From the NCBI GenBank assembly GCA_949292525.1, contig CASEZJ010000003.1:7594-71593 (forward strand): a stretch of 64,000 bases of DNA, read 5' to 3'. Positions within the stretch are counted from its first letter, which is position 1. Each line of letters starts with the position of its first letter. The notes beneath the pieces are model-generated. The model saw only the letters and a program-made list of their open reading frames with translations. It was not told the origin of the DNA and ran no database searches. Made by a program: the position numbers and the translations under genes. Shown one piece after another: positions 30,701-57,375 of this stretch. The stretch comes from an uncultured bacterium (GTDB taxonomy: Bacteria > Bacillota_I > Bacilli_A > Acholeplasmatales > Anaeroplasmataceae).

Positions 30701-31445
30701 TGGCGAAGAAGAAAAAGAAGTTGTAGAAGTAACTTCTGAATTATTAGTTCAAGTAGGAGACCATGTAAATCGTGGTGATAGACTAATTAAAGGTCCAATT
30801 CATCCAAAAGAATTATTACGTATTAAAGGTACTGAAGCTGTTCAAAAATATTTAGTAGAAGAAGTTCAAAAAGTATATCGTTCTCAAGGTGTTGAAATTT
30901 CTGATAAACACATCGAAATTATCGTAAGACAAATGTTAAGAAAAATTCATGTTAATCAAGAAGGCTCATCAGATTTATTACCAGGTCGTGATATTTCTAC
31001 TCAAGAATTTAAAGACGCCGTTAAAGCAACTTTAGCTATTGGAGGAGAATTACCAAAAGGTAAACAATTATTACTTGGTATAACTAAAGCAGCCTTAGCA
31101 TCTAACTCTTTCTTATCTGCATGTTCATTCCAAGAAACAACAAGAATTTTAACATCAGCTGCAATAGCAAGCAAAGTTGATGAATTAAAAGGCTTAAAAG
31201 AAAATGTAATTATTGGTGGATTAATCCCAGCTGGTACAGGTTTATTACATGATACAGCATTTGATTGTAAACATGCCCCAGTTGAAGAAGAATTTGAAGA
31301 TGAAGAAGAAACATTAGAAGTAACTGATAACGAACAAAACGTTTTAGATAATGAAGATTTTGAAGATGAAGAAGATGATTCATTTATCTCAGAAGAAGAA
31401 GCATTAGAAGACGATTTAGAATTTGATGAAGAAGATGAAAATTAA
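27702..31445 (+). CDS. rpoC: DNA-directed RNA polymerase subunit beta' (with acidic C-terminal tail)
   Basis: It has the catalytic motif [12 protein letters not shown] and the Zn-finger region CYCGK...CEKCG. The last ~55 aa are mostly D/E. Confidence 0.98.
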
Positions 31446-31472
31446 GGATAAGTTTAAGCTTATCCTTTTTTT
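31444..31472 (+). terminator. rho-independent terminator of rpoBC
   Basis: The hairpin is GGATAAG-TTTAAG-CTTATCC, followed by TTTTTTT. Confidence 0.7.
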
Positions 31473-31676
31473 ATTGTAAAAAAAGGCTCTATTAAAACAA
31501 AAAACAATGCTTAAAGAAAATGTAGTAGAGAAACAAAAAAAGATAGCCTTAAAATTCCACATCTTAAAAGCTATAAAAATGCTGTAAACAAAATAGGTTT
31601 AATTTTAATAACCACATTTTATATTTTTGCAAAAAACCCACAAACTAAGGCAAAAAACACTTTTAAATTGTAAAAT

Positions 31677-31692
31677 AAAAAAAAAAAAAAAA
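31677..31692. repeat. homopolymeric A16 tract
   Basis: I counted 16 consecutive A. The tract ends 43 nt upstream of the -35 element of the giant gene's candidate promoter. Confidence 0.9.
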
Positions 31693-31735
31693 CAATGTTT
31701 TTAGTTATAAACATGTATATTTAATAAGCTCTTTA

Positions 31736-31765
31736 TTGTCAAAGAAAGCGCTTTTTATATATAAT
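31736..31765 (+). promoter_or_regulatory. candidate sigma-A promoter of the giant surface protein gene
   Basis: The elements are TTGTCA, an 18-nt spacer and TATAAT. It lies ~90 nt upstream of the start codon. Confidence 0.5.
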
Positions 31766-31857
31766 ATAAAAACAATGGATTAGTGCGCACTTTTTATGTT
31801 GTTTCTAGTGCTTACTTATTATCTAAAATAATTATTTTTTGATTGGGAGGTAATTTC

Positions 31858-34800
31858 ATGAAAAGAAGAAAAATTATTTACTCAATTGGTTTATTAATTA
31901 TTACGGCCTTATTATTGCTTACTTTTCAAAATAGTAAAATTAAAGGGCAAAAGGATTATGGTCAAACCAATACTGATCACACCATTTTAGTTGGTAAAAA
32001 AGATCCAAATGATCAAAATAATTATGATGAAATTTTTAGTGATATTGCTACAGCTTTAAATGAAGCTGAAGCTGATTATGAAACTATGACAACAATTATT
32101 CTAACTAAAGATACAAGTTTAGATGAAGATATAACTATTAAATCTGGTCAGAATATTAAGGTAGTTAGTAAAGATCAAGATGTAGTAATTGGTGTGACTA
32201 ACCGAGGTTATACTTTAAGTATAGAAAGCACAATATCTTTAGATTTACAATCAAGCTTATCTTTTGATTGTAATGTTGATTTAAAAACAAATGGTAGTAT
32301 CAAGGCTAATTTTGAAAAAATAGGCGATACGTTTTTTTTACCACGTCTTGAAATATATGATTCATTGAACGCTTTAGGTGGTAGCCTTAATACAGATTAT
32401 TTTAATAGCATTAATGTTTATGGTACTATCAATCTAACAGCAGGTAATATTACAAGTTCAAATGAAGAAGAAGAAAATGTTGCCTTAAATATACCATTAA
32501 CGTTACAAGGTACTAATAGTGGTTTAGTTTATACTGGTGGCACATTAAACACTAAAATTGCTGGTGAAGGTTTAGTAGTTACTACAAATGATATAACTAC
32601 AATTGATGCACCTGATACCGTTATGAAAATTAAAGCTGAGGTATTAACTGCTGAGAGTGAAAATAATGTAGAATTATCATCAAAATTATCATCAAAAACC
32701 GCGGGTATTTATATTTTAGATTCAACTATTAACTATTCTCTAACAAGTAGTCTTACTTTAAGTGATGACCTTACATTAATAGCATTAGGTGATGCAACAA
32801 TAACAGTTGGCCAAAATGGTTATTTTAATGTTTCAAATGGTAAGACTTTAAATATCAACGGTTATTTAGATGGTAATTCAAGCTCTAATACTTTTTATTC
32901 TATTGGTGCTAATAATTTAATCATTGATGGTGGAATTACTTGGGAACAAAATAAAAATAATGGTACATATTATTTTGTTACTGATTCATATGAACCAGGT
33001 AAAGGTGATGCTGAGACTTTTGGTAGAGAAAAATATAGTGCTTCAGGCAATACTTCAAGTTACCCATTAATTAGGGTTAATGGTAGCGGTTCTACCCTAA
33101 ATTTATATCAAAATGCAGTTTTACAAAACAGAATAAATACACAACCAGAAGAAAAAAGTAATAATTCAGGTGGCGCAGTAGCATTAAATGGTGAAGCTAA
33201 GGATAAAAGAGTTAATTTAAATATTATTGGTGCTAATATTAGATATAATGCTCTACCTAATGTAGCAAATAGTTCTGGTGGTGCTGGTATTGGTGCATAT
33301 AATGCTAACATTCATATGTATTCAGGTAGCATTGATCATAACACAGTATATAAACAAGCTGGATTTACAGAAATGGAGAATGGTCAGGAAGTTGCTAGTA
33401 CAGATGGTGCTGGTGTATCATTAATTGAAAATGCTAAACTTATTATGGAAGATGGTTATATTAGTTATAATCATGGTAGTAGTAATTATAATTCAGATGG
33501 TGCTGGTATTATGGTTCGCCAATCATCAAATTTAGATATAAGAGGTGGCGAGGTAAGTTACAACTTTACATATGGTTATGGTGGCGGTATTTGTATTTAC
33601 AATTCTCAAGTTGATATTTCTAATGGCCGTATATTTGGTAACCGTGCAACTTATGGTGGCGGTATAGCTTCAAGTCATGAAAATTCAGCTAATTTAGATG
33701 ATACTACCATTAGATTAGGTATAGCTGGTGAAGAATCAAATCTAGATGTTACTTCTAACACCGCATTTACTCCAACAAAAGCTGAAGGTAAAGCTACTGG
33801 TTATGGTGGTGGTGTAGCTTTAGGAAATGATCAATTAAATAATAATCAACAATTAATAGTAAATGACGCTAATATTTATAACAATACAGCTATTTATGGT
33901 GGTGGTATTTCTGCATATACTAATGGTGGAGATAATGGTGGTAGACTTTATTTAAGAGGTGGAAATATTAGTAATAATATTGCTGAAACTTCTAATAATG
34001 GCAATGGTATATATGTTTATAGTAAAGGTAATGATGGTATTAATTCATTAGTATACCTATCAGGTAGTATAAAGATAGATACATCTAATAATATTGTTTT
34101 TGCTGACTTAGATACATTAAATAATTCTCAAAATGATGTAATAAGCAATGATGACTGGCCTAAATGGGAAAACACAAACGTAATAGAACGTGATTTCAAT
34201 GGCCTTGTTCATTATAAATATCAAAATTTAGATGTTGCTGATAATAATTATCATTATTTAGTTATAAATAGTGATGACAGACTAAACACATCAGCAGGTT
34301 ATATATTTGAAATAACCCCATATACAGATGTTACTTTTCACTTTAATCTAATAAGACCATATGGTAAAGGTGATTTATCGACCTCATTTTCAATTATTAA
34401 TAAATCAAATAATACAACCGTTTATACTAAAAATAGTTTAGACAGTTTGGGACGTAGAGGTTTAACTGGTAAGTGGACACCTGATTCAGTTCAATTAATG
34501 GCTGGCATAACATATAGTATTATTGCATCAAAGGATGTAGCTATGAAAGATATTAGTTATTCTAATGCCACTCAAACTCCTATAGTAGTAGAAGATACAT
34601 TAACTGCTACAGGTGCAATAGGTTTAATAACTTATGATGATAGTAATCAATACTCTACACATTCTACTTTAGCAGCTTATAAAAATGGTGAAGCCCAAGA
34701 AGATAAATTCATTATTGATAATGCTAATTATCATGTTTCAGCTCAAGGAAAAGCTATAAAAATTGTTAAAACAGAAACAGATAAAAATTATATTGCTGAA

Positions 34801-37800
34801 GTTGTTAAATTAGATGTTCCTAATAATAAGTTCACTAATTTAAGCGATGCAATAAGCGCAATAACCAAATCTTCTGATACTAATTTTACTATTCAAATAT
34901 TACAAAATGTTAATTTAACAAAAGAAGACTTTATTACTATACCTACTGGTAAACATGTAACTATAACATCAGCAGATGAAAATAGATTTACGTTAAATAT
35001 TCCACCAGAAATAGAAAGTGACGGAAGTACTATATTTACAATAGAAAATGGTGCAAGTTTAACCTTATCTAATATCATTTATGAAGGTGGAGCAAGTAAA
35101 AATAAGGAATTTGTTGTTGTTGAAAATAATGGTACATTTACGCTTGAAAGTGGTGCTGAAATAAACAGTAACTTAGCACCTGATGGTTTAGCTTCTATTG
35201 AAATTGGTAGAGGTAAAACTACTACTGAAATTGCTGGTATAATTAGCAAAAACGAAGGTCAATATGGTGCTATATTCATTCCTTTCTCAGAAGCTAATGT
35301 TAACATTACAAATGGTGCTCAAATATATGACAACCGATATACTGGTAATATTACAGGTTTAGAAAATATCGGTGAATATGTAGATATAGTTTTAGAAAGT
35401 GGGAATCTTAATTTAAATGATTTAACAAAAGATTCTAATATTGGCGTTATAGTTAAACAAGGTAGTGGTAGTATAAATGCTTCTAATTTAGCTAACACAA
35501 CTTCAATTGGAATTAAATTAAATGGTTCATATAACGAACAAACAGATACATACGCAAATTATTATCGTAATGCAGTTGCGGTAAATGTTACGGATTCAAA
35601 TACCTATACTGATAAATTTAAATTAATTGCACCTAACAATCCTCTTGATTCATTAATAAAAGAAGAAGTTGGTAGTGATTTAATCTTAAATATGGTTTTA
35701 GCAGTTGAGATTTCTTTCTCTAATGCATGGAATGCAAATGAAGATAAAACAGGCTATATTAAAGGCGAAACTGTAGATGTAGTTAGTGATGCATATGATT
35801 CTTTTACAGATATTAAAAATATAATTAAAACATTGTTTAACGTTGATGTAAATGAAGACAATTATACTAATTATTTAACTGTAAAAGTAAAAGAAGACAC
35901 TATAATTTTCTATATTGATTCTACTAAACAATTACAATTTAGTAGATTCACTGAAATAACATCACGTGGCAGTTATTATTTGAATGGTTTTGTTCAATAT
36001 GAAAAAAGTGCCGATACTTCTAATACTTATTATGGTACTAGTTCATATATATCAGTTCAAAACTTTAGTCAAAGAACTAATCATATTTATTTAGGTACAG
36101 TTTGGGAACCTAATTCATATGTTTTTGAATTTAATGCAGGTGGATTAAGTACTGCTTTAGGTGAAATGGAAAATCAAACTATTTATCATAATAATTTTGA
36201 TGATTCTACTAAATATCCAAATATTGATACTAACCTATATTATGCAATTGGTTTTTATTTTAAAGGTTGGAAAGTAAAAGCTAAGACAGGATTTGTTCAA
36301 GAAAATCGTGAAGATTTAGTCATAGCTGATGGAGATCAAATAACACCAAGTATGTTAAGTTCGATCACATCTCAAGCTGATGGTGATACATCTTTTGTTT
36401 TTGAAGCTCAATGGGTTTCTATCTTTGGCGATAATAATAATGATGGCTTTGCTAATATTAGTAACGTTGGTACAAGCCGCAATAATCCATTTATTATTAG
36501 AGACGTTGAAGGATTAAATGTTTTAGCAGATACTATTAGTGATGATAACGATTCATATATGGTTGATGAATATAATTACTATACTATCATAACTGTAACT
36601 AATGAAGAAACTAACGTAGTAAATAAAGGTTATGAAACAAATAGTTATGCAGGTTATTACTTTAAATTAGATGATAATTTTGACAATACTAATGATTCAT
36701 TTATGAAGGTTATTGGAACTATAGATTATTTAGGTGATAACTATTTTAAGAATCCGGATAATAAAGATCCTATCTATAGCGACATTTTAAATACTCAAGA
36801 AAATCATCCATTTAGTGGTTATTTTGATGGTAATAAGAAAACAATTAATGTAGACATTAATCCAACAACTAATAAAGACTTTGTTGGTCTATTTGGTTAT
36901 ACAAAAGACGCAACCATTACTAATCTAAATGTTGATGGCATGGTATCTGGTCGTGTTTCTGTGGGTGGTCTTGTTGGTTTAGCCTATGGTGGTAAGATTA
37001 ACAATATCGAAAGTGATGTAGATGTAAGTTTTACAGGTATTAATGCTGGTGGTATTGTTGGTACTTATTACATTGAAACAAAAAACTATAGAAATGGTGA
37101 AGTAAGACATGTTATTAATCGTGGGGAAGTAAAATATACGCCTAGTAGTGATGAGCAAAAAACAGAAGTGTCATTTGGCCCAACTTGGACTGAAAATAAA
37201 TTAATGATTGCTTATCAAGGTACTAGAGCTGGTGGTATTATTGGTCAATCTTTCCATGTTCAATTAATAGAAGCATATAATAGTGGTAATGTCACTGCTC
37301 GTTTTGGTGTTGGTGGTATTATTGGTACTATGATTTCCCAAAACGATGATATTAGTCAGGATAGTGTTGTAAATACAGCATTTAATATAGGTGATGTAGA
37401 AGCAACCTCAGGTCTTGGAACAGATTATGAATACAAAGCCGATAGTACTACAATATATCAAGTGAATGCTTATGTTGGTGGTATTGTTGGTAGAATGTAT
37501 GGTGCATCTACATTATCTAATTCTATGAATGTTGGTAATGTTACAGCATCATGGCGCGGAACATATGATGCAAGTGATCCTAATAACGTAAAATTTACAT
37601 ACAATGATACAAATCCAACACTTGGTGGACGTGGTGCCGGTGGTATTATTGGTGTTACATCTATTGAAATAGATACACTTTTAGGTGGTAATAAATACAT
37701 TAGTAGTGTAATTAACACTGGTAAAGTTAAAGCTTGGAGCCATGCTGGTGGTATTGCAGGTATTTTAGCTTATTCAGATGTTTCTTATAGTATTAACGTA

Positions 37801-40800
37801 GGTGTTGTAGAAGCTGATGGTTATATAACATATAAAGCAGGTAATTATGCATTTACAGGCGCGATAGTAGGTCTTGGTGTAGCAGCTAATTTATCAGCTA
37901 CAGTAGCTTTTGATGGTGACTTAAGCTATAAAACTGAAACAGATTCTATTATTCAAGCAATCGGTGATGATGGTGATGAAAGTGTGGTTTTTGGCTACTC
38001 AGCTAATAGTAGTTTAGCCGCAAAATTATCTTCATCTCACTTGATTTGTCAGCCAAATGATAGTAAACCATATGGTTTATCTTCAACATTCTTTGATACG
38101 GGTTGGGAATGGCAATCATATGACACAGAAGAACCCAAATATTATTATTATCCACAATTAAAATCATTCTCTACAGCAACAACCATTATTTTAAAAGATA
38201 ATAAATCAGTTAGCGAAATATCTGAGGAAGCAGTTAGACTTACAATAAAAGATGGTGAAATAGATAGACCAGTTACAGATGAACATAAAGTTACAATTAT
38301 TCTTAACTTAATGAATGGTAGTATAAGCAATCATAGTCCAATCAAAATTAATGAAGATATCACTTTTAACTATGTAGATAGTGAAAATGTTTGGAAAGCT
38401 GAAAATATCCCTTATAAAAATTATCAACAAGAAGGTAAAACATTAGATTTAGCAGAAATTGAAGAAGTTATGTCTTATCCAGGTTATGATTTTAAAGGTT
38501 GGTATTTAGATGAAGATTACACAGAACCTCCATTTGATGGTTATATTTCTTCTCAAGTTGTACAAACATTATATGCTAAGTGGGTACCTCATCAATATAA
38601 CATTGATTTAACAGGTGTTGTTAAATATTCTAATGGTAATGTTGAATTAAGTAATAATGAAAATTTATCATACACAATAGAAGATACTAGAAAAGGAAAT
38701 GTTAGAGATATCACTTTACCTACAATTAAAGAAAATTCAGCTTACAAATATGAATATTGGATAACAACAATTAATACTACTGAAGGTATAAAAACATATA
38801 ATGCGACAAGTTTTAGCATAACTGAACAAGATAATGGTAACTATTTAATATCTTTCTTTATAAATGGTGTTTCATCTGGACAAGGAACAATTGCCGAATT
38901 ACAACAATTTAATTTTGAATTATATTGTTTAGAAATTAACTATGATATATCATTCATATATAATGATTATACAAGCAATTCAAATCCTACAAGCTTAGAT
39001 GGTGTAACAAATCCTAATTTAGATTCAAATAATACGACTATATCATTCAATATTAATAGTACAGATGGTTTAGAACTTGCTTCTAAACCTGGCTATGAAT
39101 TTATAGGTTGGTTCTATGAAGGCCAAAAAGTAAATACTATTTCCGAAATATTGAAGATTTTAAATAAAGATAAAATCGACATGAAAGATGTCAAACTAGA
39201 AGGTAGATTTGAAGCTGATACCTTTAAGTTAATACTTAATTTAAATGGTGGAACATTTGCGGAGGCAACAGGAAATAGTGTAACACTTGATATAAATGGT
39301 GAAAATTATATACTTGAACGTAATAATGAAGGTGTATGGGTAATAGAAGTACTTTATGGAACTGATATTACATGGCTTACAAAAATTACTTTAAGTCACA
39401 TTAAATCGCCGGCAGGTAAAACATTTATTGAGATGTCAAGCCACATTGATACATCAGAAGATATATTATCTAATATGCCAGCATATGATTTAACAGTTTA
39501 TGCAAACTATGAACCTCAGACTTATAAAATAAAATTAGGAATAACATCTGATGAAGGAACATCTATAAATGGTTTAGCATTTGATTCTACTGATGCAATT
39601 ATACTTATAAATAATGGAACACTAAGTTGGGAAAATGATACATTATATTTAATAACTGAATATGGTGCTGATCTATCAGATGCTTTAAAAACAATACAAA
39701 ATGTTCTAAATGCTAGAAATAAAACAAGTTACAAACCTAGTGGTTATGAAGCTAAATATGATGGCAATATATTTAATTATTACAATGTTAAAATAGATGA
39801 AGAATACGATGAAATTTCAATTAATTTCATTTATTCACAAGAAAATTTCATTGTTGATTTTTATGACTCATTAGGTAACTTCATTGCTAAATTTGAAACA
39901 AAAAATAGTGAAGAAAGTTGGTTAAAAGACAATAAAATCATTGTAAGTGAATTAGAACAAGAATTATCTAGAATTTTAGGTGAATATGAATATAAAGTAC
40001 CTAGAGGTTATACAAGTAATAATAATAATTATAATTATATTATATTTGTTAATGATATTGCTATTACTATTACTGATCCAGAAATATCTGTAGCTGGCGC
40101 TTATACTATAATAGAAATTCAATTAACAGCAAAAGAATATAGTGTTAAATTTGAAACTGAAGGCACAGAAGTTACGGACACTATTAAGTTTACATATAAT
40201 GAGCCTATTGCAAAGTTACCAGATTCAAATCGTGATGGTTATGATCTATCAGGTTGGGAATATAACGGTAGTTTATTAGCTATAGAAACCAAATTTAATG
40301 AAGAACATTTCAGTTTTAATTTCGATAATAGTACAGAAATCACTTTAAAAGCTAGATATGAAGCAGCAACTTATAATATAACTTATGAATTTAAAGCTGA
40401 TGCTTATTGGGCAGGAAATATTTCAAATCAAACTCAAAGTGTTAGATATAATGATTTTGAATTTATAGATTTAAAAACTGAATTTAATAATTTTGAAGGT
40501 TACACATTTAGTTCAGCTAGTTATAATAACACAAATATAACAAATAATATTATTGATAATACTTTCTTAGAAGATTTACAGCAAGAAAGAAATATTACAA
40601 TTACTATTAATTTAATAATAAAAACAATTTATATTATATTTAATGCAGGTGAAGGTCATTTTGTATTTGATAAAGATGATATTACTAGAGGCTTCTATTT
40701 AGAAAATATAGCTGATTTAGGTGATTCATCTAAACATATTACTGAAGATAATGGTGACGATTCTAAACTAAGATATTTAGTAATTGAAGCTAACTATTAT

Positions 40801-43800: not shown

Positions 43801-46800
43801 GCTAAATATGAACCTAATACTTATACTATAACTTATGAAATTCATGATGAAAATAATAATAGCTATCATTATGACGTTGTGACTTATACATATAGTAAAA
43901 ATGTTCAAGATTTAAGTTTAAAGGAATTACCAACAAATTCTGATTTATATAATTATGATGGTTGGTATTTAAAGGATGACAAAGTAGAAGACATAAATAC
44001 AATTTATGGTCAAAATGTTACTTTATATGCTAATAGAACAACTAATGATATAACAACTACTATTGTTGTAAATGATGTTCCAAATGTTGATGAATATAAA
44101 ACATATTTAGAAGGCATCAAAGGTGATGCTACTAATGTAGAAATTGTAGTAGATAGTACTACAGTTAAAGTAATATTTACTACTAAATATAATGAATCAA
44201 GAGAAATAATTAATCAGTTCTTTGGTCAAGTTTATCCAACAACAAGCGAAGGAATAAATTACACTCTTGATAAACTTAATATAAATTCAATAACTCCTAA
44301 TAAGAATGAAGAATATCCATTATCATTCTATACAGGTTCAGTTAAGGTAACTTTATATCTTGTTAAAGGAACAAATGTAACTACAATTGGTACATTAAAT
44401 GAATTAGTTATAACAGAAGGTTTAGTTAACGATCGATTAACTAATATTGATACTCTAGGTTATGAATTTAAGGGTTGGAAAGAAAAAGACTCTAATGGAG
44501 AATATGTAGACTATTCATTTACTAATGATGAATTAACAAAAGCTTTAGAATTATATGCCCTTTATGAAGCAATTAGTTATACGATTAGTTATGATGACAC
44601 TAACATTACTGAACAAGTAGCATTTGATGATGGAAAAACAGTTCAAACATTGAATGAACCAGGTCAAAAATTATTAGGTTGGTCTTTAACAGAAGGTGGA
44701 CCTGTTCAATATAGCGCAGGTGAATCAATTAATAATGTTTTAAGAGATCATTTAACTAATGAAGTAAATTTAATGGCTAATGGAAATACAATAACCTTGT
44801 ATCCAGTAACTAGAGAATATTATTTAACTATTAAATTTGATAATGGTAATAGTAGTGCTACTGGTAATATGAGTAGTATTAAAGTTGCTTATTCAGACTT
44901 AAATGGTTATGTCCTACCAGCAAATAAATATGAATTAGTAGGATATACATCTACTTCATGGAAATATAATGAATCTAATGCAAATATTACTGAAATAAGT
45001 GGTGCTTTATTAACTACATTACAACAAAAAATTGCAAGTGAAGATAGTGAAATTATTTTAACTGCTAATTGGGAAGCTAACAAATATAGTGTTACTTACA
45101 TAAATGCAACCATTACAAATGAAAGCACATTTGATGAATATACATATGGTAATGGTCTAACATTACCAGCATTAAATGATTTAGCTGAAAGAGCAGGCTT
45201 TACGTTTGCAGGTTGGTTCATGGCAAGTGATTGTACTGGTGATGTAGTAACTACTATTAACAACACTGAAACAGGTAATAAGACATATTATGCTAAATGG
45301 ACACAAAATAAATATTATTTACAATTTGAAAAATCAGAAACTATAAAATATGTAGATGCGAATGGTAATGATTTTACATTTAGTGATGTTACTGGTGAAG
45401 GATTAGATACTAACTTCTATTATCTAGAAGTAACATATGGCTCAGTTATACCTAAATTGCCAATATTAAAAGAAGCTAATTATATTTTCCATGCTTGGAC
45501 ATATAATAATGTTACTATTAGTGAAGGTAATGTTTATAGTTATGTATCTAACATAATATTAAATGCTAATAAATCAAAACAACCATATACAATATTTATT
45601 GATTTTGATAATGGTAATCAAAATGTTAATGAAGTCACAGAATATGGTGCTTCTATAAATGAATATTTAGATAACTATAGTAATATTACGAAAACAGGTT
45701 ATACTTTAACTGGTTGGTATATTAATGGTACTTCATATACATTAGAACAATTAGAACAAAATGAATTAGCAATTACTTCAAGCACAACAATTAAAGCTGT
45801 TTGGACACCTAATAAATATGATTTAATTATTGATGGTACAACAAACGAGGACTATTTAACATTTGGTCAAGATAATTCATTAGAAGATATAATTGATGAA
45901 TTGACTAAAGATGGTTATCATTTGTTAGGATTTACTGATGAAGAAAATAGTCAAGATGTTAAATTTACAAATTCTTATAAGTTAGAAAAAGATGTTGATA
46001 TAACCCTATATCCAATTTGGGAAGCAAATACTTTAACTATTATTTTCAATAATAATAATGGTTCTGGTACAATGAAACACCAAATTGTAAGTTACGATCA
46101 ATTAGACGATTTTGAATTAGCTGAAAACACATTCACTAAACGTGGTCATGATTTTATTGGTTGGTTATATAATAGTAATCAAAATATTAGCTTTGATAAC
46201 GGAAAATTAGATTTAACTAACTTTATTGCATATGTTAAAGAACAATTAAAAAATGAAAGTTTTACAATTGAATTAGAAGCTAATTGGCAAGCAAACACAT
46301 ATAGTATAACTTATGAATTTGGTGAATTAACGGATGTAATAAATCCAAACGAAAAAACTTATACATATGGTGAAGGTTTAACATTAAAAGATCCTTCAAG
46401 ACTTGGTTATACATTCATTGGTTGGAAAGTAAATAATAATGATGTTGTTAAAGAATATGTAATAGGTGAAGATACTATTGGTGACATAACATTACAAGGC
46501 GTATTTGAAGCTAATATATATAATATAACTTATAAATTTGGTGAATTAACGGATGTAATAAATCCAAATCAAAACACTTATACATATGGTGAAGGTTTAA
46601 CATTAAAAGATCCTTCAAGACTTGGTTATACATTTGATGGTTGGTATTTAAATAACGCAAAAGTTAATGAAATATCAACAACCACTACAGATGACTTAAC
46701 TTTAGAAGGAAGATTCACACCAATAGAATATACTATATCATTTAATTCTGATGGTGGAACTAATATAGAAGAAGTTAAATATAATTATGGTCAAGAACTA

Positions 46801-49800
46801 ATTTTATCTAAACCTTCAAAACCTGGTTATACATTTATTGGTTGGTACTTTAATGATGAAGTTATAACTCCAGATATAATAGCACAAAATGCTATAGATA
46901 ATGCAATCATGTTAACAGCTCGTTATGAAGCAAATGATATAAAAATCACGATTACAATTAGTGATATTGCCACTAGCAATTTAGCCGCTATTATCAATAG
47001 AGAGTTAAATAACAATTTAAAAGGTTATGAATTTACAATTTCTGAAGCTAACGATGGAGCTGTTATTACAGTAACTATCAGTATTAAGTATTCTCCAAAT
47101 GAAGATATAAGTGGTTTAAATAATATTATTAAAACAATAACATATAAAGAAAATGATATAACTTATACATTTGGTGGATATAAATCTAATAATCAAAGTT
47201 ATAATTTTAGTTATTTACCTAATGAAGATATAAATATTACAGCTAATTATTTAACTAGTGAAATGGTGGTATATTTATATGTAGATGATAATGCTCCAAT
47301 ATCTTATATACCAACATTAGAAGATGGTAAATATAGCTTAACTAAGCAAGAATTAGATGGAGAGATTAGTACTAAAATAGGCTATACTTTAAGTGCTTGG
47401 TATGACCAAAATGGGGATGAATTTAACTTTAGTATAGAACAAAATAAATCTATAAGTTTATATGCTAATTTTATTCCAAATACTTATGCTATCACTTTAA
47501 ATGTAAATGGTGGAGATGAATTATCTAATGATAAGTTCGAAGTCACTTATGATAGTCAAATTGGCACAGAATTAGTAGAACCTACAAGAACAGGTTATAC
47601 ATTTACTGGTTGGTTTGATAGTAATAATAACCGAGTAACTAAAGAAACTATTTATAAATACGCAAAAGATATCACTTTAACAGCTCAATGGGAAGCTATG
47701 ACTTATGTAATAACTTATGAAACTGTTGGTGGTTCAACTATCAATGAAGTGTTAGAAATGACTTATGATAAGCCTAGTCATATTACTAACACAACTCCGA
47801 CAAAACGTGGTTATAATTTCTTAGGTTTTGCGACTACACCAAACGCTGAAGAAGCTATATATAGCTTAGGTCAAGAAGTAACAAATATATTATTTGAAGC
47901 TTCAAATAAGACTTTATATGCAGTGTGGAAAGCTAAAACATATACAATTAGCTATCAAGGTTATAGCAATACACAAACATTTAGTTATAATGAAGTTTTA
48001 CCAGAATTACTTGAAGTAAGTTTAGAAGGTAATACATTCATATCTTGGTATTATAACGATATTAGAGTAGAATCAGGACAATTATTAAGCACATTATTAA
48101 CCGATGAAGATGAAAAAGACTTAAATATTACCTTAGTTCCAAAATTTGAAAAGAATAGCTACATTGTATCATTTGATACACTTGGTGGAACTAATATTGA
48201 AGCTATAAACGTAACATATGGTGATTTAATTAATGTTGATAATCCGACTAAAACAGGTTACAACTTCATAAGTTGGCAAATAGATGGTAACGATGTTGAC
48301 TTAGTCACTTATAAAATGCCTGATCATAATGTGAAACTTGTAGCTAGATATGAAATAGTAGAATATAATATTTCATATGTAGGAACTGATTATTCACATT
48401 CTAATAAAGAAACTTATACAGTAAAAGATGTAGTTGAATTTAAAGACGCTACAAAAGTTGGTTATACATTTGCAGGTTGGTATTTAGATAGTAACTTTGA
48501 AACAAAAGTTACATCAACATTAGACTATGCTAAAGATTTAGTATTATATGCTAAATTTGAAGTTATAACATATAACATTTCATATAGTTTAGATGGTGGC
48601 ACTAATGCTAATACAAACCCTAATAGTTATACAGTTGAAGATGTAGTTGAATTTGAAGATGCTACTAAAGTTGGTTATACATTTGCCGGTTGGTATTTAG
48701 ATAGTAATTTTGAAACAAAAGTTGCATCTACATTAGACTATGCTAAAGATTTAGTATTATATGCTAAATTTGAAGTTATAACATATACAATAACATTAGG
48801 AGAAGATGAAATTAAATATACTGTAGAAAAAGTAGTAGAATTACCAGTATTAACAAAACCAGGATATGAATTTGGTGGTTGGTTAATTGCTGGTGAAGCT
48901 AGATTTAATACAATAGATTTAGTTGGTAATTATAATGGTAGTGCTATTTGGACTTTATTAGAATATAACATTTCATATAGTTTAGATGGTGGTACTAATG
49001 CTAATACAAATCCTAATAGTTATACAGTTGAAGATGTAGTTGAATTTGAAGATGCTACTAAAGTTGGTTATACATTTGCTGGTTGGTATTTAGATAGTAA
49101 TTTTGAAACAAAAGTTACATCTACATTAGACTATGCTAAAGATTTAGTGTTATATGCAAAATTTGAAGTTATAACTTACACAATAACATTTGATACATCT
49201 GATACTAGTTTACCTAAATTTGAAGATGTTGAAATTGCGTATGGTGAAACATTAGGCTCTAAATTGCCAAATGTTGATGTTCCATTTGGCACAACATTTG
49301 ATTATTGGTATTATACTAATAGCGAAAACGAAGATGTTGTTGTTACAAAAGACTTTGTTTATAATTTAACTACAAATATAACTTTAAAACCTAAAGTTTA
49401 TGATACGACATATTACTTTATTTATAACCTTGATGGTGGTATCAATAACGATAGTAATATATTTGAAATTACTCTACCTGATTTAAATGAACCAAAAGAA
49501 TTATATAATCCTACTAAAGTTGGTTATAAATTTGTTAGTTGGTATTTAGATAGTGAAATGACTATTGAGGTAGTTCAATTAACAAAAGAAGTTCTAGAAT
49601 ATGCAAATAATAAAAATCAAATCAGTCTTTATGCTAAATATGAAATTGAAACCTACACAATAAAATATTTAGATAATGATAAAACAACCGTCTTAAAAGA
49701 AACTGAAATGCAATATAATACGTTAGCTGAAATCTTTACCCCTACTAAAGATGGCTATATATTTGATGCTTGGTTAAAAGAAGATGGTAAACGTTATGAC

Positions 49801-50604
49801 TTTAACACACCAATTACAGGTGATTTAGTGTTAATTGCCGGTTATCGTAAAGAATTTATTACTTACACATTAAAGACAGAAACAGAAGATGTGGTAATCA
49901 CTGTTCAATCTATTGATGGTAAAGGTTTACCTGCAGATGCTAAATTACAAGTTGTTCTAGTTAAACATGAGATTGATGCGACTGAGGCAATAGATTTATT
50001 AGCTAATATAGGAACTATAACTCGTTTATATGACATTAAATTAGTAGATTCAGCTGGAACTATCATTGAACCTAATGGTGAAGTTAGAGTAACATTAACA
50101 TTACCAGATGGTAAATTCCCTGGTGAAGGTAAAGAATATAAGATCATGTATATCAATAATGATTATTCTAACTATGAAGAATATGATTGCCGAGTTAATA
50201 CAGATGGTCTATTAGAATTCTATACTACTCACTTCTCATATTACGCTATTGTTACAGTTGATAAAGTTATTGACTACACTTGGTTATGGATTGTATTAGG
50301 AGTATTAGGTTTACTATTAATTCAAGCTATTATAGTTATAATAGTTAAGAATCGTAAATATAAGATTACATTCATTAGTAATGGTAATATTAAAGTTAAG
50401 GATATGCGTTACAAGAAAGACGAAAATGTCATCTTACCTATTCCAGAACGTTTAGGCTATAAATTTGTCGGTTGGTATTTAGATTCTAAATACACTCATC
50501 CAGCAAATATTAAGACTATGCCAAATGAAAATATTATCTTATATGCTAGATGGAAAGAAGATCCAATAACTATTGGCTTAGTAGTTAAAAACAAAAAAAA
50601 CTAA
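31858..50604 (+). CDS. giant (~6,248 aa) multi-repeat surface protein / putative adhesin with N-terminal signal anchor and C-terminal TM anchor
   Basis: This is a single uninterrupted 18.7-kb ORF. I chose the ATG at 31858, 7 nt after GGGAGG; the track start at 31843 is a TTG inside the RBS. The N-terminal hydrophobic segment is IIYSIGLLIITALLLLTF. I saw no LPXTG motif. Confidence 0.9.
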   Translation: MKRRKIIYSIGLLIITALLLLTFQNSKIKGQKDYGQTNTDHTILVGKKDPNDQNNYDEIFSDIATALNEAEADYETMTTIILTKDTSLDEDITIKSGQNIKVVSKDQDVVIGVTNRGYTLSIESTISLDLQSSLSFDCNVDLKTNGSIKANFEKIGDTFFLPRLEIYDSLNALGGSLNTDYFNSINVYGTINLTAGNITSSNEEEENVALNIPLTLQGTNSGLVYTGGTLNTKIAGEGLVVTTNDITTIDAPDTVMKIKAEVLTAESENNVELSSKLSSKTAGIYILDSTINYSLTSSLTLSDDLTLIALGDATITVGQNGYFNVSNGKTLNINGYLDGNSSSNTFYSIGANNLIIDGGITWEQNKNNGTYYFVTDSYEPGKGDAETFGREKYSASGNTSSYPLIRVNGSGSTLNLYQNAVLQNRINTQPEEKSNNSGGAVALNGEAKDKRVNLNIIGANIRYNALPNVANSSGGAGIGAYNANIHMYSGSIDHNTVYKQAGFTEMENGQEVASTDGAGVSLIENAKLIMEDGYISYNHGSSNYNSDGAGIMVRQSSNLDIRGGEVSYNFTYGYGGGICIYNSQVDISNGRIFGNRATYGGGIASSHENSANLDDTTIRLGIAGEESNLDVTSNTAFTPTKAEGKATGYGGGVALGNDQLNNNQQLIVNDANIYNNTAIYGGGISAYTNGGDNGGRLYLRGGNISNNIAETSNNGNGIYVYSKGNDGINSLVYLSGSIKIDTSNNIVFADLDTLNNSQNDVISNDDWPKWENTNVIERDFNGLVHYKYQNLDVADNNYHYLVINSDDRLNTSAGYIFEITPYTDVTFHFNLIRPYGKGDLSTSFSIINKSNNTTVYTKNSLDSLGRRGLTGKWTPDSVQLMAGITYSIIASKDVAMKDISYSNATQTPIVVEDTLTATGAIGLITYDDSNQYSTHSTLAAYKNGEAQEDKFIIDNANYHVSAQGKAIKIVKTETDKNYIAEVVKLDVPNNKFTNLSDAISAITKSSDTNFTIQILQNVNLTKEDFITIPTGKHVTITSADENRFTLNIPPEIESDGSTIFTIENGASLTLSNIIYEGGASKNKEFVVVENNGTFTLESGAEINSNLAPDGLASIEIGRGKTTTEIAGIISKNEGQYGAIFIPFSEANVNITNGAQIYDNRYTGNITGLENIGEYVDIVLESGNLNLNDLTKDSNIGVIVKQGSGSINASNLANTTSIGIKLNGSYNEQTDTYANYYRNAVAVNVTDSNTYTDKFKLIAPNNPLDSLIKEEVGSDLILNMVLAVEISFSNAWNANEDKTGYIKGETVDVVSDAYDSFTDIKNIIKTLFNVDVNEDNYTNYLTVKVKEDTIIFYIDSTKQLQFSRFTEITSRGSYYLNGFVQYEKSADTSNTYYGTSSYISVQNFSQRTNHIYLGTVWEPNSYVFEFNAGGLSTALGEMENQTIYHNNFDDSTKYPNIDTNLYYAIGFYFKGWKVKAKTGFVQENREDLVIADGDQITPSMLSSITSQADGDTSFVFEAQWVSIFGDNNNDGFANISNVGTSRNNPFIIRDVEGLNVLADTISDDNDSYMVDEYNYYTIITVTNEETNVVNKGYETNSYAGYYFKLDDNFDNTNDSFMKVIGTIDYLGDNYFKNPDNKDPIYSDILNTQENHPFSGYFDGNKKTINVDINPTTNKDFVGLFGYTKDATITNLNVDGMVSGRVSVGGLVGLAYGGKINNIESDVDVSFTGINAGGIVGTYYIETKNYRNGEVRHVINRGEVKYTPSSDEQKTEVSFGPTWTENKLMIAYQGTRAGGIIGQSFHVQLIEAYNSGNVTARFGVGGIIGTMISQNDDISQDSVVNTAFNIGDVEATSGLGTDYEYKADSTTIYQVNAYVGGIVGRMYGASTLSNSMNVGNVTASWRGTYDASDPNNVKFTYNDTNPTLGGRGAGGIIGVTSIEIDTLLGGNKYISSVINTGKVKAWSHAGGIAGILAYSDVSYSINVGVVEADGYITYKAGNYAFTGAIVGLGVAANLSATVAFDGDLSYKTETDSIIQAIGDDGDESVVFGYSANSSLAAKLSSSHLICQPNDSKPYGLSSTFFDTGWEWQSYDTEEPKYYYYPQLKSFSTATTIILKDNKSVSEISEEAVRLTIKDGEIDRPVTDEHKVTIILNLMNGSISNHSPIKINEDITFNYVDSENVWKAENIPYKNYQQEGKTLDLAEIEEVMSYPGYDFKGWYLDEDYTEPPFDGYISSQVVQTLYAKWVPHQYNIDLTGVVKYSNGNVELSNNENLSYTIEDTRKGNVRDITLPTIKENSAYKYEYWITTINTTEGIKTYNATSFSITEQDNGNYLISFFINGVSSGQGTIAELQQFNFELYCLEINYDISFIYNDYTSNSNPTSLDGVTNPNLDSNNTTISFNINSTDGLELASKPGYEFIGWFYEGQKVNTISEILKILNKDKIDMKDVKLEGRFEADTFKLILNLNGGTFAEATGNSVTLDINGENYILERNNEGVWVIEVLYGTDITWLTKITLSHIKSPAGKTFIEMSSHIDTSEDILSNMPAYDLTVYANYEPQTYKIKLGITSDEGTSINGLAFDSTDAIILINNGTLSWENDTLYLITEYGADLSDALKTIQNVLNARNKTSYKPSGYEAKYDGNIFNYYNVKIDEEYDEISINFIYSQENFIVDFYDSLGNFIAKFETKNSEESWLKDNKIIVSELEQELSRILGEYEYKVPRGYTSNNNNYNYIIFVNDIAITITDPEISVAGAYTIIEIQLTAKEYSVKFETEGTEVTDTIKFTYNEPIAKLPDSNRDGYDLSGWEYNGSLLAIETKFNEEHFSFNFDNSTEITLKARYEAATYNITYEFKADAYWAGNISNQTQSVRYNDFEFIDLKTEFNNFEGYTFSSASYNNTNITNNIIDNTFLEDLQQERNITITINLIIKTIYIIFNAGEGHFVFDKDDITRGFYLENIADLGDSSKHITEDNGDDSKLRYLVIEANYYQRAVDALHNRPILAGYTYSSYIAENSDINMNTPLTDNENIFNANYNADTYTITYIGEGITTDTTTAKYDAEITLPTPTRTGYKFTGWKIVGQTDDQTYEDKYTVKGNVVFEATWEEKLFNLILTVKEEYRGAVLEALAKIDDSFTSWPADNTFIIKFNTNLQELNRIKTNNSLLIWKNDNVPYTFSTMPADKLDLTAELSQRDYVVITAGVKNEKTEEVIFTYHLYAFKQEGQEYYKIESIPEELPEELRDGYSFNINSVDWHENGTNKGNLANAVFTNSTAIYAFATPDDYTIVYTTYENGVLKTDTIIGYHDQILVDVLKDINRSRPGYEFKNWTMNGIAVEDNKKITSNITVVADWTPVTYKIEFKYGDFNKTTEAIEYDTVINQIPTFNELNSGKEEAYYSMKFMVGSVQWNKIFGDDLRMVALNDIQEQYPKEIRESESGNEYIITVTIELVAKNFTINFIGTNIGVPNFEEFSVPFNKESNFTEITKLINNGITTSTSSFNDIIHYNCLKFGDVTVAETYVFKDLIKLFENQYDVEVRLEYEAKKYNLVYNEHNPEFTINYKNVNLDTFAPIYSGTDDAKHYYFAGWYINGDTSQTLYNNIIPVDILLNYIQDGKVEILPKYEPRNYGIIFYNKLGNSLDTSLPYGTKLDSNELNLDLILEDNNGYYEFKGWEYDGNKYLVIDDNIDLSDLTVNGHMLFNAIWEAKEFTITYNNIDGLTNPNPSTITIETNPIELKPIAKLGYTFDGWYIGETVVTELDLKTLTDKDNIILEAKFTPNTYKVSFDTAGGTVVDEQSYKYDDNSFTGLPTTNKDGYMFVGWYYDNIHIQTLEDIAKYAIDNEIKLTAVYEDNKYTIKFDYQHGELTDSNIENNEVSLGYSDPFNLPGINNLSADYQFLYWKVTINDVTTYYQAGQMVSRLATSGEVTFTAIYSYTVKLYDDNTPKYELNLVLDGTSVTLPSLPDKEHYTFKGWTTGNDSKVYVAGENYSLTKPLYAKYEPNTYTITYEIHDENNNSYHYDVVTYTYSKNVQDLSLKELPTNSDLYNYDGWYLKDDKVEDINTIYGQNVTLYANRTTNDITTTIVVNDVPNVDEYKTYLEGIKGDATNVEIVVDSTTVKVIFTTKYNESREIINQFFGQVYPTTSEGINYTLDKLNINSITPNKNEEYPLSFYTGSVKVTLYLVKGTNVTTIGTLNELVITEGLVNDRLTNIDTLGYEFKGWKEKDSNGEYVDYSFTNDELTKALELYALYEAISYTISYDDTNITEQVAFDDGKTVQTLNEPGQKLLGWSLTEGGPVQYSAGESINNVLRDHLTNEVNLMANGNTITLYPVTREYYLTIKFDNGNSSATGNMSSIKVAYSDLNGYVLPANKYELVGYTSTSWKYNESNANITEISGALLTTLQQKIASEDSEIILTANWEANKYSVTYINATITNESTFDEYTYGNGLTLPALNDLAERAGFTFAGWFMASDCTGDVVTTINNTETGNKTYYAKWTQNKYYLQFEKSETIKYVDANGNDFTFSDVTGEGLDTNFYYLEVTYGSVIPKLPILKEANYIFHAWTYNNVTISEGNVYSYVSNIILNANKSKQPYTIFIDFDNGNQNVNEVTEYGASINEYLDNYSNITKTGYTLTGWYINGTSYTLEQLEQNELAITSSTTIKAVWTPNKYDLIIDGTTNEDYLTFGQDNSLEDIIDELTKDGYHLLGFTDEENSQDVKFTNSYKLEKDVDITLYPIWEANTLTIIFNNNNGSGTMKHQIVSYDQLDDFELAENTFTKRGHDFIGWLYNSNQNISFDNGKLDLTNFIAYVKEQLKNESFTIELEANWQANTYSITYEFGELTDVINPNEKTYTYGEGLTLKDPSRLGYTFIGWKVNNNDVVKEYVIGEDTIGDITLQGVFEANIYNITYKFGELTDVINPNQNTYTYGEGLTLKDPSRLGYTFDGWYLNNAKVNEISTTTTDDLTLEGRFTPIEYTISFNSDGGTNIEEVKYNYGQELILSKPSKPGYTFIGWYFNDEVITPDIIAQNAIDNAIMLTARYEANDIKITITISDIATSNLAAIINRELNNNLKGYEFTISEANDGAVITVTISIKYSPNEDISGLNNIIKTITYKENDITYTFGGYKSNNQSYNFSYLPNEDINITANYLTSEMVVYLYVDDNAPISYIPTLEDGKYSLTKQELDGEISTKIGYTLSAWYDQNGDEFNFSIEQNKSISLYANFIPNTYAITLNVNGGDELSNDKFEVTYDSQIGTELVEPTRTGYTFTGWFDSNNNRVTKETIYKYAKDITLTAQWEAMTYVITYETVGGSTINEVLEMTYDKPSHITNTTPTKRGYNFLGFATTPNAEEAIYSLGQEVTNILFEASNKTLYAVWKAKTYTISYQGYSNTQTFSYNEVLPELLEVSLEGNTFISWYYNDIRVESGQLLSTLLTDEDEKDLNITLVPKFEKNSYIVSFDTLGGTNIEAINVTYGDLINVDNPTKTGYNFISWQIDGNDVDLVTYKMPDHNVKLVARYEIVEYNISYVGTDYSHSNKETYTVKDVVEFKDATKVGYTFAGWYLDSNFETKVTSTLDYAKDLVLYAKFEVITYNISYSLDGGTNANTNPNSYTVEDVVEFEDATKVGYTFAGWYLDSNFETKVASTLDYAKDLVLYAKFEVITYTITLGEDEIKYTVEKVVELPVLTKPGYEFGGWLIAGEARFNTIDLVGNYNGSAIWTLLEYNISYSLDGGTNANTNPNSYTVEDVVEFEDATKVGYTFAGWYLDSNFETKVTSTLDYAKDLVLYAKFEVITYTITFDTSDTSLPKFEDVEIAYGETLGSKLPNVDVPFGTTFDYWYYTNSENEDVVVTKDFVYNLTTNITLKPKVYDTTYYFIYNLDGGINNDSNIFEITLPDLNEPKELYNPTKVGYKFVSWYLDSEMTIEVVQLTKEVLEYANNKNQISLYAKYEIETYTIKYLDNDKTTVLKETEMQYNTLAEIFTPTKDGYIFDAWLKEDGKRYDFNTPITGDLVLIAGYRKEFITYTLKTETEDVVITVQSIDGKGLPADAKLQVVLVKHEIDATEAIDLLANIGTITRLYDIKLVDSAGTIIEPNGEVRVTLTLPDGKFPGEGKEYKIMYINNDYSNYEEYDCRVNTDGLLEFYTTHFSYYAIVTVDKVIDYTWLWIVLGVLGLLLIQAIIVIIVKNRKYKITFISNGNIKVKDMRYKKDENVILPIPERLGYKFVGWYLDSKYTHPANIKTMPNENIILYARWKEDPITIGLVVKNKKN
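33160..33920 (+). other. parallel-beta-helix / Pmp-like GG[AG] repeat region of the giant protein
   Basis: Recurring motifs are SGGAVALNG, SGGAGIGAYN, DGAGVSLIEN, DGAGIMVRQ, GYGGGICIYN, TYGGGIASS, GYGGGVALGN and IYGGGISAYT. They are spaced ~25-35 aa apart and interleaved with N-rich turns. Confidence 0.6.
36880..37900 (+). other. GLUG-like repeat region of the giant protein
   Basis: Motifs include GLFGYTKDATITNLNVDG, VGGLVGLAYGG, NAGGIVG, RAGGIIGQS, VGGIIGTM, VGGIVGRMYG, GAGGIIGV, HAGGIAGI and GAIVGLG. The same module type occurs in the lipoprotein at 5812-7488. Confidence 0.6.
46300..46651 (+). repeat. tandem duplication (period 219 bp) inside the giant gene
   Basis: The segment ACTTATGAATTTGGTGAATTAACGGATGTAATAAATCC...GGTTATACATT recurs 219 nt later. 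I saw only a handful of mismatches over ~130 nt. Confidence 0.85.
48364..49176 (+). repeat. three near-identical 207-213-bp modules (48364-48570, 48571-48783, 48964-49176) inside the giant gene
   Basis: By my manual alignment, copies 2 and 3 differ at about 7 of 213 nt. All three encode ...VEF(K/E)DATKVGYTFAGWYLDSNFETKV(T/A)STLDYAKDLVLYAKFEVIT. Confidence 0.85.
50281..50346 (+). other. C-terminal transmembrane anchor of the giant protein
   Basis: The helix is WLWIVLGVLGLLLIQAIIVIIV. It is followed by the positive stop-transfer sequence KNRKYK. Confidence 0.7.
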
Positions 50605-50622: not shown

Positions 50623-50660
50623 AAAAAACAGGTCATCGTATTAAACTTTGACCTGTTTTT
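50623..50660 (+). terminator. rho-independent terminator of the giant gene
   Basis: The stem is CAGGTCA-(13-nt loop)-TGACCTG, followed by TTTTT. Confidence 0.6.
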
Positions 50661-50684: not shown

Positions 50685-50713
50685 TTGACATTATATGCCA
50701 AGCTTATTATAAT
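50685..50713 (+). promoter_or_regulatory. consensus promoter placed for a leaderless transcript
   Basis: The elements are TTGACA, a 17-nt spacer and TATAAT. The ATG at 50720 begins 7 nt after the -10 hexamer, and there is no SD sequence. Confidence 0.55.
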
Positions 50714-50719
50714 GAAATC

Positions 50720-56765: not shown

Positions 56766-56779
56766 TCGAGGTAAAGGCC

Positions 56780-57373: not shown

Positions 57374-57375
57374 TA

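Follow-up and report, generated by a model that had tools for sequence, protein, structure and literature searches.

The 64,000-nucleotide stretch analysed here (the window; contig CASEZJ010000003.1, positions 7,594 to 71,593, from an uncultured member of the Anaeroplasmataceae) carries, directly downstream of rpoBC, a single giant gene for a modular protein of 6,248 residues. Close to the carboxy terminus of this protein, just before a transmembrane (TM) helix, lies a β-sandwich that, from its structural model and motif, is most likely a MAIN domain, with a predicted cleavage site between F6126 and S6127. Because the juxtamembrane domain is better explained as MAIN/GAIN-like, anchoring of the ectodomain is probably non-covalent, and not simply via the TM helix. 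On balance, we favour the view that the giant protein is a very large MAIN-domain surface protein with a variant anchor, acting as an adhesin-like break-away tether.

An uninterrupted open reading frame (ORF) extends on the + strand from 31843 to 50604 and, counted from the ATG at 31858, this one ORF takes up 18,747 of the 64,000 bases (29.3%), bearing out the original prediction of a single uninterrupted gene of ~6,248 residues filling ~29% of the window. GGGAGG at 31845–31850, a ribosome-binding site, stands 8 nt 5' of this ATG, and the G+C content of the gene (0.26–0.32) is like that of the surrounding genome. Hydropathy over the whole protein identifies two hydrophobic segments only, residues 3–28 and 6137–6166. 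The domain content fits the modular surface protein that had been proposed, with modules in essentially the proposed order. The coding sequence and the parts that carry the argument are as follows.

31858..50604, + strand: giant coding sequence (ATG start likely, TAA stop; 6,248 residues, 700.6 kDa, isoelectric point (pI) 4.4)
31858..31941, + strand: N-terminal Sec-type signal or signal-anchor (MKRRK and a hydrophobic core of 18–20 residues, by hydropathy)
49864..50265, + strand: putative MAIN (GAIN-B/ZU5-like) β-sandwich (residues 6003–6136; AlphaFold2, Foldseek and HFS motif)
50275..50346, + strand: single TM helix (residues 6140–6163, hydropathy 3.17, helix in the AlphaFold2 model), then KNRKYK
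50359..50577, + strand: post-TM Flg_new domain (residues 6168–6240; Pfam 56.6 bits over the full-length profile; the 40th Flg_new copy)

The AlphaFold2 model of residues 6000–6248 (predicted local distance difference test score (pLDDT) 79, ~80 for the sandwich) comprises a β-sandwich, a helix at residues 6141–6164 and then a β-grasp domain. The motif H6125-F6126-S6127 (codons at 50230–50238), within TTHFSYYAIV, sits in the turn between the last two strands (model E119–124 and E129–136). Structure searches with Foldseek against the PDB return as top matches for the sandwich the ZU5 domain of ankyrin-B (probability 0.99, E 6.7e-3) and the GAIN domains of CELSR1, BAI3 and ADGRB2 (GAIN structures matched: 8vy2, 4dlo and 8oek). 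An Ig-like domain ending in HFSYYAIVT had been proposed here; a compact β-sandwich is indeed present, and AlphaFold2 and Foldseek point to the ZU5/GAIN-B type instead. Among the aligned MAIN sequences F and S are invariant and H is found in 9 of 10, and HFS is present in 10 of the 11 complete relatives; these three residues are the most conserved of the domain in sequences that are 24–44% identical.

MAIN domains are GAIN-B-like β-sandwiches of bacteria and archaea with an HX(S/T) motif, HFS in Bacillota, that sit between a large adhesive or enzymatic ectodomain and a surface anchor (Brogan & Rudner, bioRxiv 10.64898/2026.05.12.724683). The authors collected them by PSI-BLAST from Bacillus subtilis YfkN, in which Edman sequencing placed the cut after F and before S; the two fragments remain together. 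Nearly all tested HFS-bearing MAIN domains co-purify as cleaved, associated products, and Ser-to-Ala substitution abolishes cleavage in the three MAIN domains tested besides YfkN (bioRxiv 10.64898/2026.05.12.724683). The same source counts Flg_new as the second commonest Pfam partner of MAIN (1,589 counts), names glycoside hydrolase activities as its main enzymatic partners and notes that DPAM labels MAIN as ZU5 or GPS, in the same ECOD group as the ZU5 and GAIN matches reported above (bioRxiv 10.64898/2026.05.12.724683). The part of its tables considered here includes layouts of 'pectin lyase-like, Flg_new, ZU5 (+ TM helix)' in Methanomassiliicoccus and Christensenella, and holds no case of the order ZU5 then Flg_new (bioRxiv 10.64898/2026.05.12.724683). 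The giant protein shows the order of signal, adhesion or enzymatic domains, MAIN and C-terminal anchor, and differs in the type of anchor. It has no LPXTG near the C terminus (LPxxN matches occur only at residues 2787 and 3794), and its end is not of the sortase type, the segment after the TM helix being 85 residues long and folded in the model; motif scan and hydropathy thus agree with the earlier claim of a C-terminal TM helix and no LPXTG.

A scan of metagenomes yielded one locus, L010 (OWID01000010.1), with a domain ending in ETDHFSYYAL that is 37% identical to ours (E 1e-12). There the domain is followed by a 25-residue linker, NPSTG, a hydrophobic stretch and KKKH, a sortase-type signal, so that, as far as sequence can tell, this protein would be the canonical sortase-type counterpart of the giant protein's ending. 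The L010 ORF ends near 3460, encodes at least 852 residues with a β-helix-like N-terminal part and a Ser/Gly/Pro-rich linker before the MAIN-like domain, and comes from an organism of 47% G+C. A third protein search, with the MAIN profile, returned P0004 alone, and tblastn of two MAIN domains against plasmids gave no match.

The module continues beyond the sandwich in a constant manner: in 11 of 11 complete relatives an HFS-type motif precedes a single TM helix by 8–17 residues, and exactly one Flg_new domain follows. The gap between MAIN and the TM helix is a few residues (about 3–8), and basic residues flank the C-terminal side of the helix in all relatives. The post-TM domain matches the InlB B-repeat 2y5p in Foldseek (probability 1.00). 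It is the only basic repeat of the protein (pI 9.4, net charge +4), the 39 repeats before the TM helix all being acidic (pI 4.05–5.24), and the same charge reversal is seen in all eight low-GC-type members, the giant protein included. It is also the best conserved C-terminal element, with a mean pairwise identity of 0.47 as compared with 0.35–0.38 for MAIN and for the last two extracellular repeats. Taken with the positive-inside rule, the basic flank and reversed charge predict that the post-TM domain is cytoplasmic. In the literature we found no report of a cytoplasmic Flg_new domain, nor of a folded domain on the intracellular side of a MAIN stub. The original prediction of a TM anchor therefore holds for the helix itself and had overlooked that the protein continues into a Flg_new domain. 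Relatives whose amino-acid composition is of a very different, high-GC type have this MAIN–TM–Flg_new ending too, and the TM anchor is therefore a family trait; we tentatively set aside the idea that it is an adaptation to wall-lessness, and the earlier suggestion that TM anchoring suits a wall-less lineage finds no support as adaptation.

We lean towards the following account, in which the giant protein is a Sec-exported, adhesin-like fibril whose ectodomain is held non-covalently via a self-cleaved MAIN domain, forming a break-away tether. During folding, H6125 would activate S6127, which would attack the F6126–S6127 bond (N–O acyl shift, then hydrolysis). The last β-strand, SYYAIVTV, would remain inserted in the sandwich, so that a 683-kDa ectodomain would be held non-covalently on a stub of 14 kDa (predicted products 683 kDa and 14.3 kDa) made of the strand, the TM helix and the basic cytoplasmic Flg_new domain. 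The head would bind (or cut) a polymer and the long Flg_new stalk would carry the head. Pull on a bound ligand would extract the strand and shed the fibril, sparing the membrane of a wall-less cell; the MAIN joint would thus be a mechanical fuse or release device. The simplest role for the cytoplasmic Flg_new domain would be that of an inside 'button' retaining the single helix, possibly via acidic lipids or a partner.

Several points weigh against this account. We infer that the protein is exported and exposed at the surface, that it is cleaved and released under force, that it adheres and that its tail has the role proposed, and the predicted topology derives from the positive-inside rule only. 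The MAIN fold matches are weak (best E 6.7e-3, none at E ≤ 1e-3; the alignment held 3 sequences only), no Pfam, NCBIfam or PDB sequence match ties the sandwich to validated MAIN domains, and the source paper on MAIN is a preprint. One relative, P0008 (L008, 10001–21967), reads SFS, not HFS (residues 3863–3874), and keeps the rest of the MAIN–TM–Flg_new module; it may be a non-cleaving variant by its sequence, and the predicted cleavage is therefore not universal in the family. The N-terminal segments of relatives resemble that of the giant protein, with AXA-like sites in several, and the giant protein's own segment has no clear AXA site; if it stays uncleaved, both ends are tethered and MAIN shedding alone would give no release. 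The β-helix head, finally, fits a polysaccharide-degrading enzyme equally well, and no ligand is indicated.

The SFS of P0008, the weak ZU5/GAIN matches and the missing AXA site would all suit a covalent fibril, a single polypeptide that its TM helix holds in place (perhaps together with an N-terminal anchor that stays uncleaved) and in which the sandwich is a mere spacer and HFS arose by chance; many ZU5 domains, that of ankyrin for example, do not self-cleave. We nevertheless regard such a fibril as unlikely: in a domain whose sequences are only 24–44% identical, conservation is highest at H, F and S, HFS falls exactly in the turn preceding the last strand, and the tested HFS-bearing MAIN domains nearly all cleave, with cleavage abolished by Ser-to-Ala in the three so tested besides YfkN (bioRxiv 10.64898/2026.05.12.724683).

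The constancy of the tail invites a different proposal, in which the protein is a mechanosensory receptor: shedding would expose the strand or destabilise the stub, and the cytoplasmic Flg_new domain would relay this through partner release or intramembrane proteolysis, by analogy with adhesion G-protein-coupled receptors (GPCRs) or the SEAL-domain RsgI anti-sigma factors. The tail domain, present in 11 of 11 complete relatives, best conserved among the C-terminal elements and reversed in charge, speaks for it, as does a further, cytoplasmic extension of ~210 residues in P0014; whether MAIN stubs signal is stated as not known and left as a question by the preprint's authors (bioRxiv 10.64898/2026.05.12.724683). 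We consider this role improbable, since the tail has no recognisable signalling domain, DNA-binding or anti-sigma motif, no conserved regulator or site-2 protease lies beside the gene (the neighbours of P0014, P0020 and the window gene differ), and the membrane protein conserved 3' of the gene has no family assignment. Equally doubtful, in our estimate, is the broader idea that MAIN–TM–Flg_new is a prokaryotic single-pass analogue of adhesion GPCRs, in which force-driven loss of the 683-kDa ectodomain would be relayed by the stub and alter physiology via the conserved, basic cytoplasmic Flg_new domain, with partner release, binding of lipid or nucleic acid, or intramembrane proteolysis as possible outputs; if true, no MAIN protein before it would have had a cis-signalling output, and no Flg_new domain a cytoplasmic role. 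The extension in P0014 (L005, 8001–19913) follows its post-TM Flg_new domain, has no Pfam match, is rich in charged residues and, from its composition, may be helical.

Returning to the tether that we favour, its head (~230 kDa) would consist of two right-handed β-helix modules, as modelled, and a GLUG-like region, with a sandwich inserted between the two modules.

31942..34119, + strand: head part 1, right-handed β-helix (residues 29–754; AlphaFold2 and Foldseek; GG-rich coils at residues ~400–750)
34120..34737, + strand: inserted β-sandwich (residues ~755–960; only in the clade of the window protein, P0005 and P0006)
34738..35727, + strand: head part 2, second β-helix-like module (residues 961–1290; AlphaFold2 up to residue 1180, pLDDT ~70–95)
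36445..38187, + strand: region of GLUG-like GG(I/L)(V/I)G repeats (residues 1530–2110; repeat motif, sub-threshold Pfam Glug)

Built on an alignment of 11 relatives, the AlphaFold2 model of the head (pLDDT 80, predicted template modelling score 0.77) consists throughout of short, periodic strands, with pLDDT mostly 85–97 in part 1. Part 1 is the most widely conserved portion of the head across the family, and part 2 is conserved across it as well. Foldseek against BFVD gives 10 matches at E ≤ 1e-3 (best E 5.9e-5), among them a 'Right handed beta helix domain-containing protein' (probability 1.00) and pectate-lyase-superfamily proteins; against the PDB it gives phage tailspike depolymerases and the alginate epimerase AlgG at E ~1e-2. 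The length and multi-domain make-up of the chains keep TM-scores low, and sequence identities are 8–12%. Residues 1–2200, searched against Pfam and NCBIfam whole and, to E ≤ 5, as nine sub-segments, match no family above threshold, and the first 2,160 residues give no PDB sequence match, only noise. The β-helix regions of the original prediction are therefore right at the level of the fold, in view of the Foldseek matches, and have no counterpart at the family level, where no PbH1, Beta_helix or Pmp (Chlam_PMP) hidden Markov model (HMM) matches. The predicted GLUG-like block fares similarly: GLUG-like repeats are present, and Pfam Glug (PF07581) reaches 18.0 bits (E 0.0038), short of the 20.5 bits that assignment to the family demands. 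Two of four homologues match Glug at E ≤ 1, likewise below threshold. The region is 54–87% identical among close homologues, and its profile matches nothing in the PDB or NCBIfam.

The same structural matches, led by phage capsule depolymerases, pectate-lyase-superfamily proteins and AlgG, would suit a head that is a lyase or hydrolase on a stalk, released by MAIN to forage at a distance, and glycoside hydrolases are the main enzymatic partners of MAIN (bioRxiv 10.64898/2026.05.12.724683). With low TM-scores at 8–12% identity and no catalytic family in the Pfam or NCBIfam scans, we give this depolymerase only a small chance. β-Helices are, moreover, often found in proteins that are adhesins and nothing else, as in pertactin, AIDA and Pmp.

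The inserted sandwich is modelled at low to moderate pLDDT, and relatives outside its clade do not have it. In its central part (~34210–34650, residues ~785–930) many Foldseek matches are to a receptor-binding jelly-roll, that of haemagglutinin from influenza virus and of haemagglutinin-esterase from coronaviruses; these are weak (probability ~1.0, E ~1e-2, with pLDDT only 50–70) and give a hint, from the model, of a lectin-like module.

The stalk (~440 kDa) is a chain of diverged β-grasp domains.

38356..49875, + strand: stalk of 38 Flg_new (Listeria-Bacteroides/InlB B-repeat) domains (residues 2167–6006; self-built repeat HMM)

PF09479 scores 158.5 and 480.6 bits on the two C-terminal thirds of the protein (cut-off 27) and TIGR02543 87 and 281 bits (cut-off 20.95); Flg_new_2 matches too. 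The 38 domains agree with the ~35–40 modules predicted at 38284–49870, and the repeat HMM adds a weak copy at residues 1621–1688. Six gaps of about 95–200 residues each interrupt the stalk and match no family. In gut microbes, Flg_new and GLUG proteins are classed as adhesin-like (PMC9723798).

A repeat array of this length raises the suspicion of a chimera, or of repeats collapsed or expanded in assembly. Loci in other genomes lend this some substance: the homologues in L001 (20560–20700) and L002 (9060–9190) are split by frameshifts away from homopolymers, and in L001 the junction has the look of two near-identical repeats collapsed into each other. The window itself holds one block of 228-nt copies that are 77–100% identical.

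48357..49190, + strand: block of repeats duplicated recently (three copies of 228 nt, 77/100/96% identical; copy number uncertain only here)

A second stretch, 46289–46655, is similar enough for repeat collapse. Elsewhere the repeats are assemblable, because their median pairwise identity is only 22%. A genome-collection scan found the same gene directly 3' of rpoC in L003 and L004, two species representatives, with homologous ORFs that stay open as far as the sequence examined extends (>5,502 residues in L003, >5,422 in L004) and N-terminal parts 93% (L003) and 46% (L004) identical to the giant protein. P0006 is collinear with the giant protein (89% identity over 4,818 residues), P0014 and P0008 are intact on two independent contigs each, and relatives of 4–6.4 thousand residues have matching N- and C-terminal modules. 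An ORF open across 18.7 kb in an AT-rich genome argues in the same direction. The original prediction had allowed that the ORF might be frameshifted or an assembly artefact; what we find instead are the long intact ORFs of L003 and L004 and the collinear P0006. An assembly artefact is thus largely excluded, and we hold a chimera, a pseudogene or a collapsed or expanded array to be very improbable.

When 1.84 billion representatives were searched with a profile of the head (residues 29–1180), 184 proteins matched at E ≤ 1e-3, of which 22 did so at E ≤ 1e-30; lengths of 3.5–6.4 thousand residues prevail among the best matches. About 20 relatives have a common layout of signal or anchor, β-helix head, GLUG-like region and Flg_new repeats. 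It had been suggested that this architecture is not a named family, which proves only partly right, the general layout being catalogued in the 2026 MAIN preprint. Against L003 the giant protein is 96–100% identical over residues 1–1600 and about 88% over residues 1600–2000, falls from 64% to 42% across residues 2000–3600 and is 29% or less thereafter (no orthology), going down to 25% or less in the stalk, while rpoBC of this same species is ~97% identical in DNA. P0006 represents a third allele, with 95–96% identity in the head and 76–88% in the stalk. Across genera RpoC is 89–90% identical and the head of the giant protein only 42–46%. Compared in this way, the giant gene evolves much faster than any other in its conserved neighbourhood, with turnover of the stalk even within the species. 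As a separate observation, the high-GC-type relative P0020 (L007) is flanked by smaller Flg_new proteins and a GH97 glycosidase (8671–9891, 30154–31929), a cluster for surface proteins and glycan use, unlike the housekeeping surroundings in the window.

Around the gene, signals of expression are seen on both sides.

31444..31467, + strand: terminator-like hairpin closing the rpoBC unit (10-bp stem, then a T run)
31736..31765, + strand: promoter-like site TTGTCA-18-TATAAT 5' of the giant gene (11 of 12 consensus positions; consensus match only)
50624..50660, + strand: terminator-like hairpin 3' of the giant gene (12 bp, -16.5 kcal/mol, z = -6.3; between an A tract and a U tract)

A hairpin after rpoC, a promoter-like site and a 3' hairpin make a separate transcription unit plausible for the giant gene, on consensus evidence only; within that limit they match the promoter and terminator of its own that had been predicted. 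Phase variation was rejected, the only homopolymer tracts being T8 at 32332 and A8 at the stop codon.

The window covers the conserved cysS-secE-nusG-rplKAJL-rpoBC region, and its RpoC shares 90% identity with the RpoC of L004, the Acholeplasmatales metagenome-assembled genome that is the closest named genome. Acholeplasmatales is a wall-less order, and the source organism is presumably wall-less. By analogy with the usual habitats of Flg_new proteins, the lineage is probably host-associated. The giant gene is the sole adhesin-like gene within the window, which sustains its earlier ranking as the likeliest adhesion determinant there. A functional link to rpoBC was rejected: P0014 and P0020 are encoded elsewhere in their genomes, and rpoC is followed by a terminator-like hairpin. 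The window clade and L008 (also L001, L003 and L004) have the gene after rpoBC, P0014 and P0020 do not, and this placement therefore reflects lineage synteny.

Immediately 3' of the giant gene (50685–51448) lies a gene for a 242-residue protein with 5–6 TM segments and no family match; its syntenic counterpart in L008 is 79% identical. Only 7 nt separate its ATG from the end of a perfect TTGACA-17-TATAAT, which therefore implies a leaderless mRNA or a later true start. As a partner of the giant protein it was set aside, having no family and not lying beside P0014 or P0020. Between the rplL/methyltransferase genes and rpoB (18960–24012) are three genes, for 292, 653 and 725 residues, with a G+C of 0.21–0.23 against ~0.28–0.31 around them; the 653-residue protein has a weak FtsX match and the 725-residue protein matches ABC_tran and FtsX (MacB-like). 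The same slot holds a ParE toxin pair in L001, and a RelB gene lies just 5' of rpoB in L008; it looks like a variable island. G+C rises to 0.38–0.42 at 56000–63000, over genes for a phosphoribosyltransferase, a xanthine/uracil permease, DUF805, an α-amylase and an M20 peptidase, which may be acquired DNA. ORFs of 562 residues (5800–7488) and 160 residues (63385–63867) have no Pfam match at E ≤ 1e-4.

SEA domains of mucins have been proposed as a membrane-protecting fuse, and the tether that we favour suggests a route by which a wall-less cell could bear a 0.7-MDa adhesive fibril, fitted with such a break-away device, with its membrane kept from tearing. With its head conserved and its stalk hypervariable within the species, the protein is a candidate determinant of colonisation and strain variation. 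MAIN domains were described only in 2026, with the function of the retained fragment not known according to the authors (bioRxiv 10.64898/2026.05.12.724683); since this family joins the stub to a TM helix and a conserved intracellular domain, it can test whether GAIN-like modules have uses beyond shedding. Giant genes of this kind are routinely broken in short-read assemblies, as in two of the first four homologous loci recovered, and RefSeq-protein catalogues therefore under-sample them.

Among known systems, Staphylococcus aureus Ebh shares with the giant protein an N-terminal signal, a very long array of small repeats, a C-terminal TM segment and a basic cytoplasmic tail; it differs in its repeat families and in having no known autoproteolytic juxtamembrane domain, and no homology was detected between the two. 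The adhesin-like Flg_new/GLUG proteins of gut Methanomassiliicoccales, Methanimicrococcus and Christensenella, and the InlB B-repeat, belong to the same PF09479 β-grasp family, and the gut proteins, in the sources as far as considered here, often have β-helix heads and GLUG and are host-associated (PMC9723798; bioRxiv 10.64898/2026.05.12.724683, Table S3). They have few repeats, at most some tens, and none is reported with Flg_new on the cytoplasmic side, whereas the giant protein has 38 in one chain and one more after the TM helix.

Closer in logic are SEA (MUC1) and SEAL (RsgI), in which a self-cleaved juxtamembrane module likewise holds a long chain non-covalently and is proposed to part under force, for membrane protection in mucins or signalling in RsgI. 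These have another fold and the motif G|SVVV, and RsgI has a defined cytoplasmic anti-sigma domain where the giant protein has Flg_new. Adhesion GPCRs also combine a large adhesive ectodomain, a juxtamembrane H-X-S/T autoproteolytic sandwich, a tethered last strand and a cytoplasmic portion; they have seven TM helices (here one), GAIN-A and G-protein coupling (neither here), and the likeness is one of fold and logic only, with no detectable sequence similarity. The nearest relatives by design are MAIN surface proteins such as YfkN and the Streptococcus agalactiae IgA-Fc receptor, which have the same order of parts, HFS in the last β-turn, large size, Flg_new and pectin-lyase-like partners, and F–S cleavage with non-covalent retention (both predicted here). 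Known MAIN proteins lack a cytoplasmic part and are mostly attached to the wall, through a sortase signal, SLH or wall-binding domains; the giant protein, unlike these, passes almost directly into a TM helix and then a conserved folded domain, in a presumably wall-less organism, and is ~4 times the size of the average MAIN protein (158 kDa).

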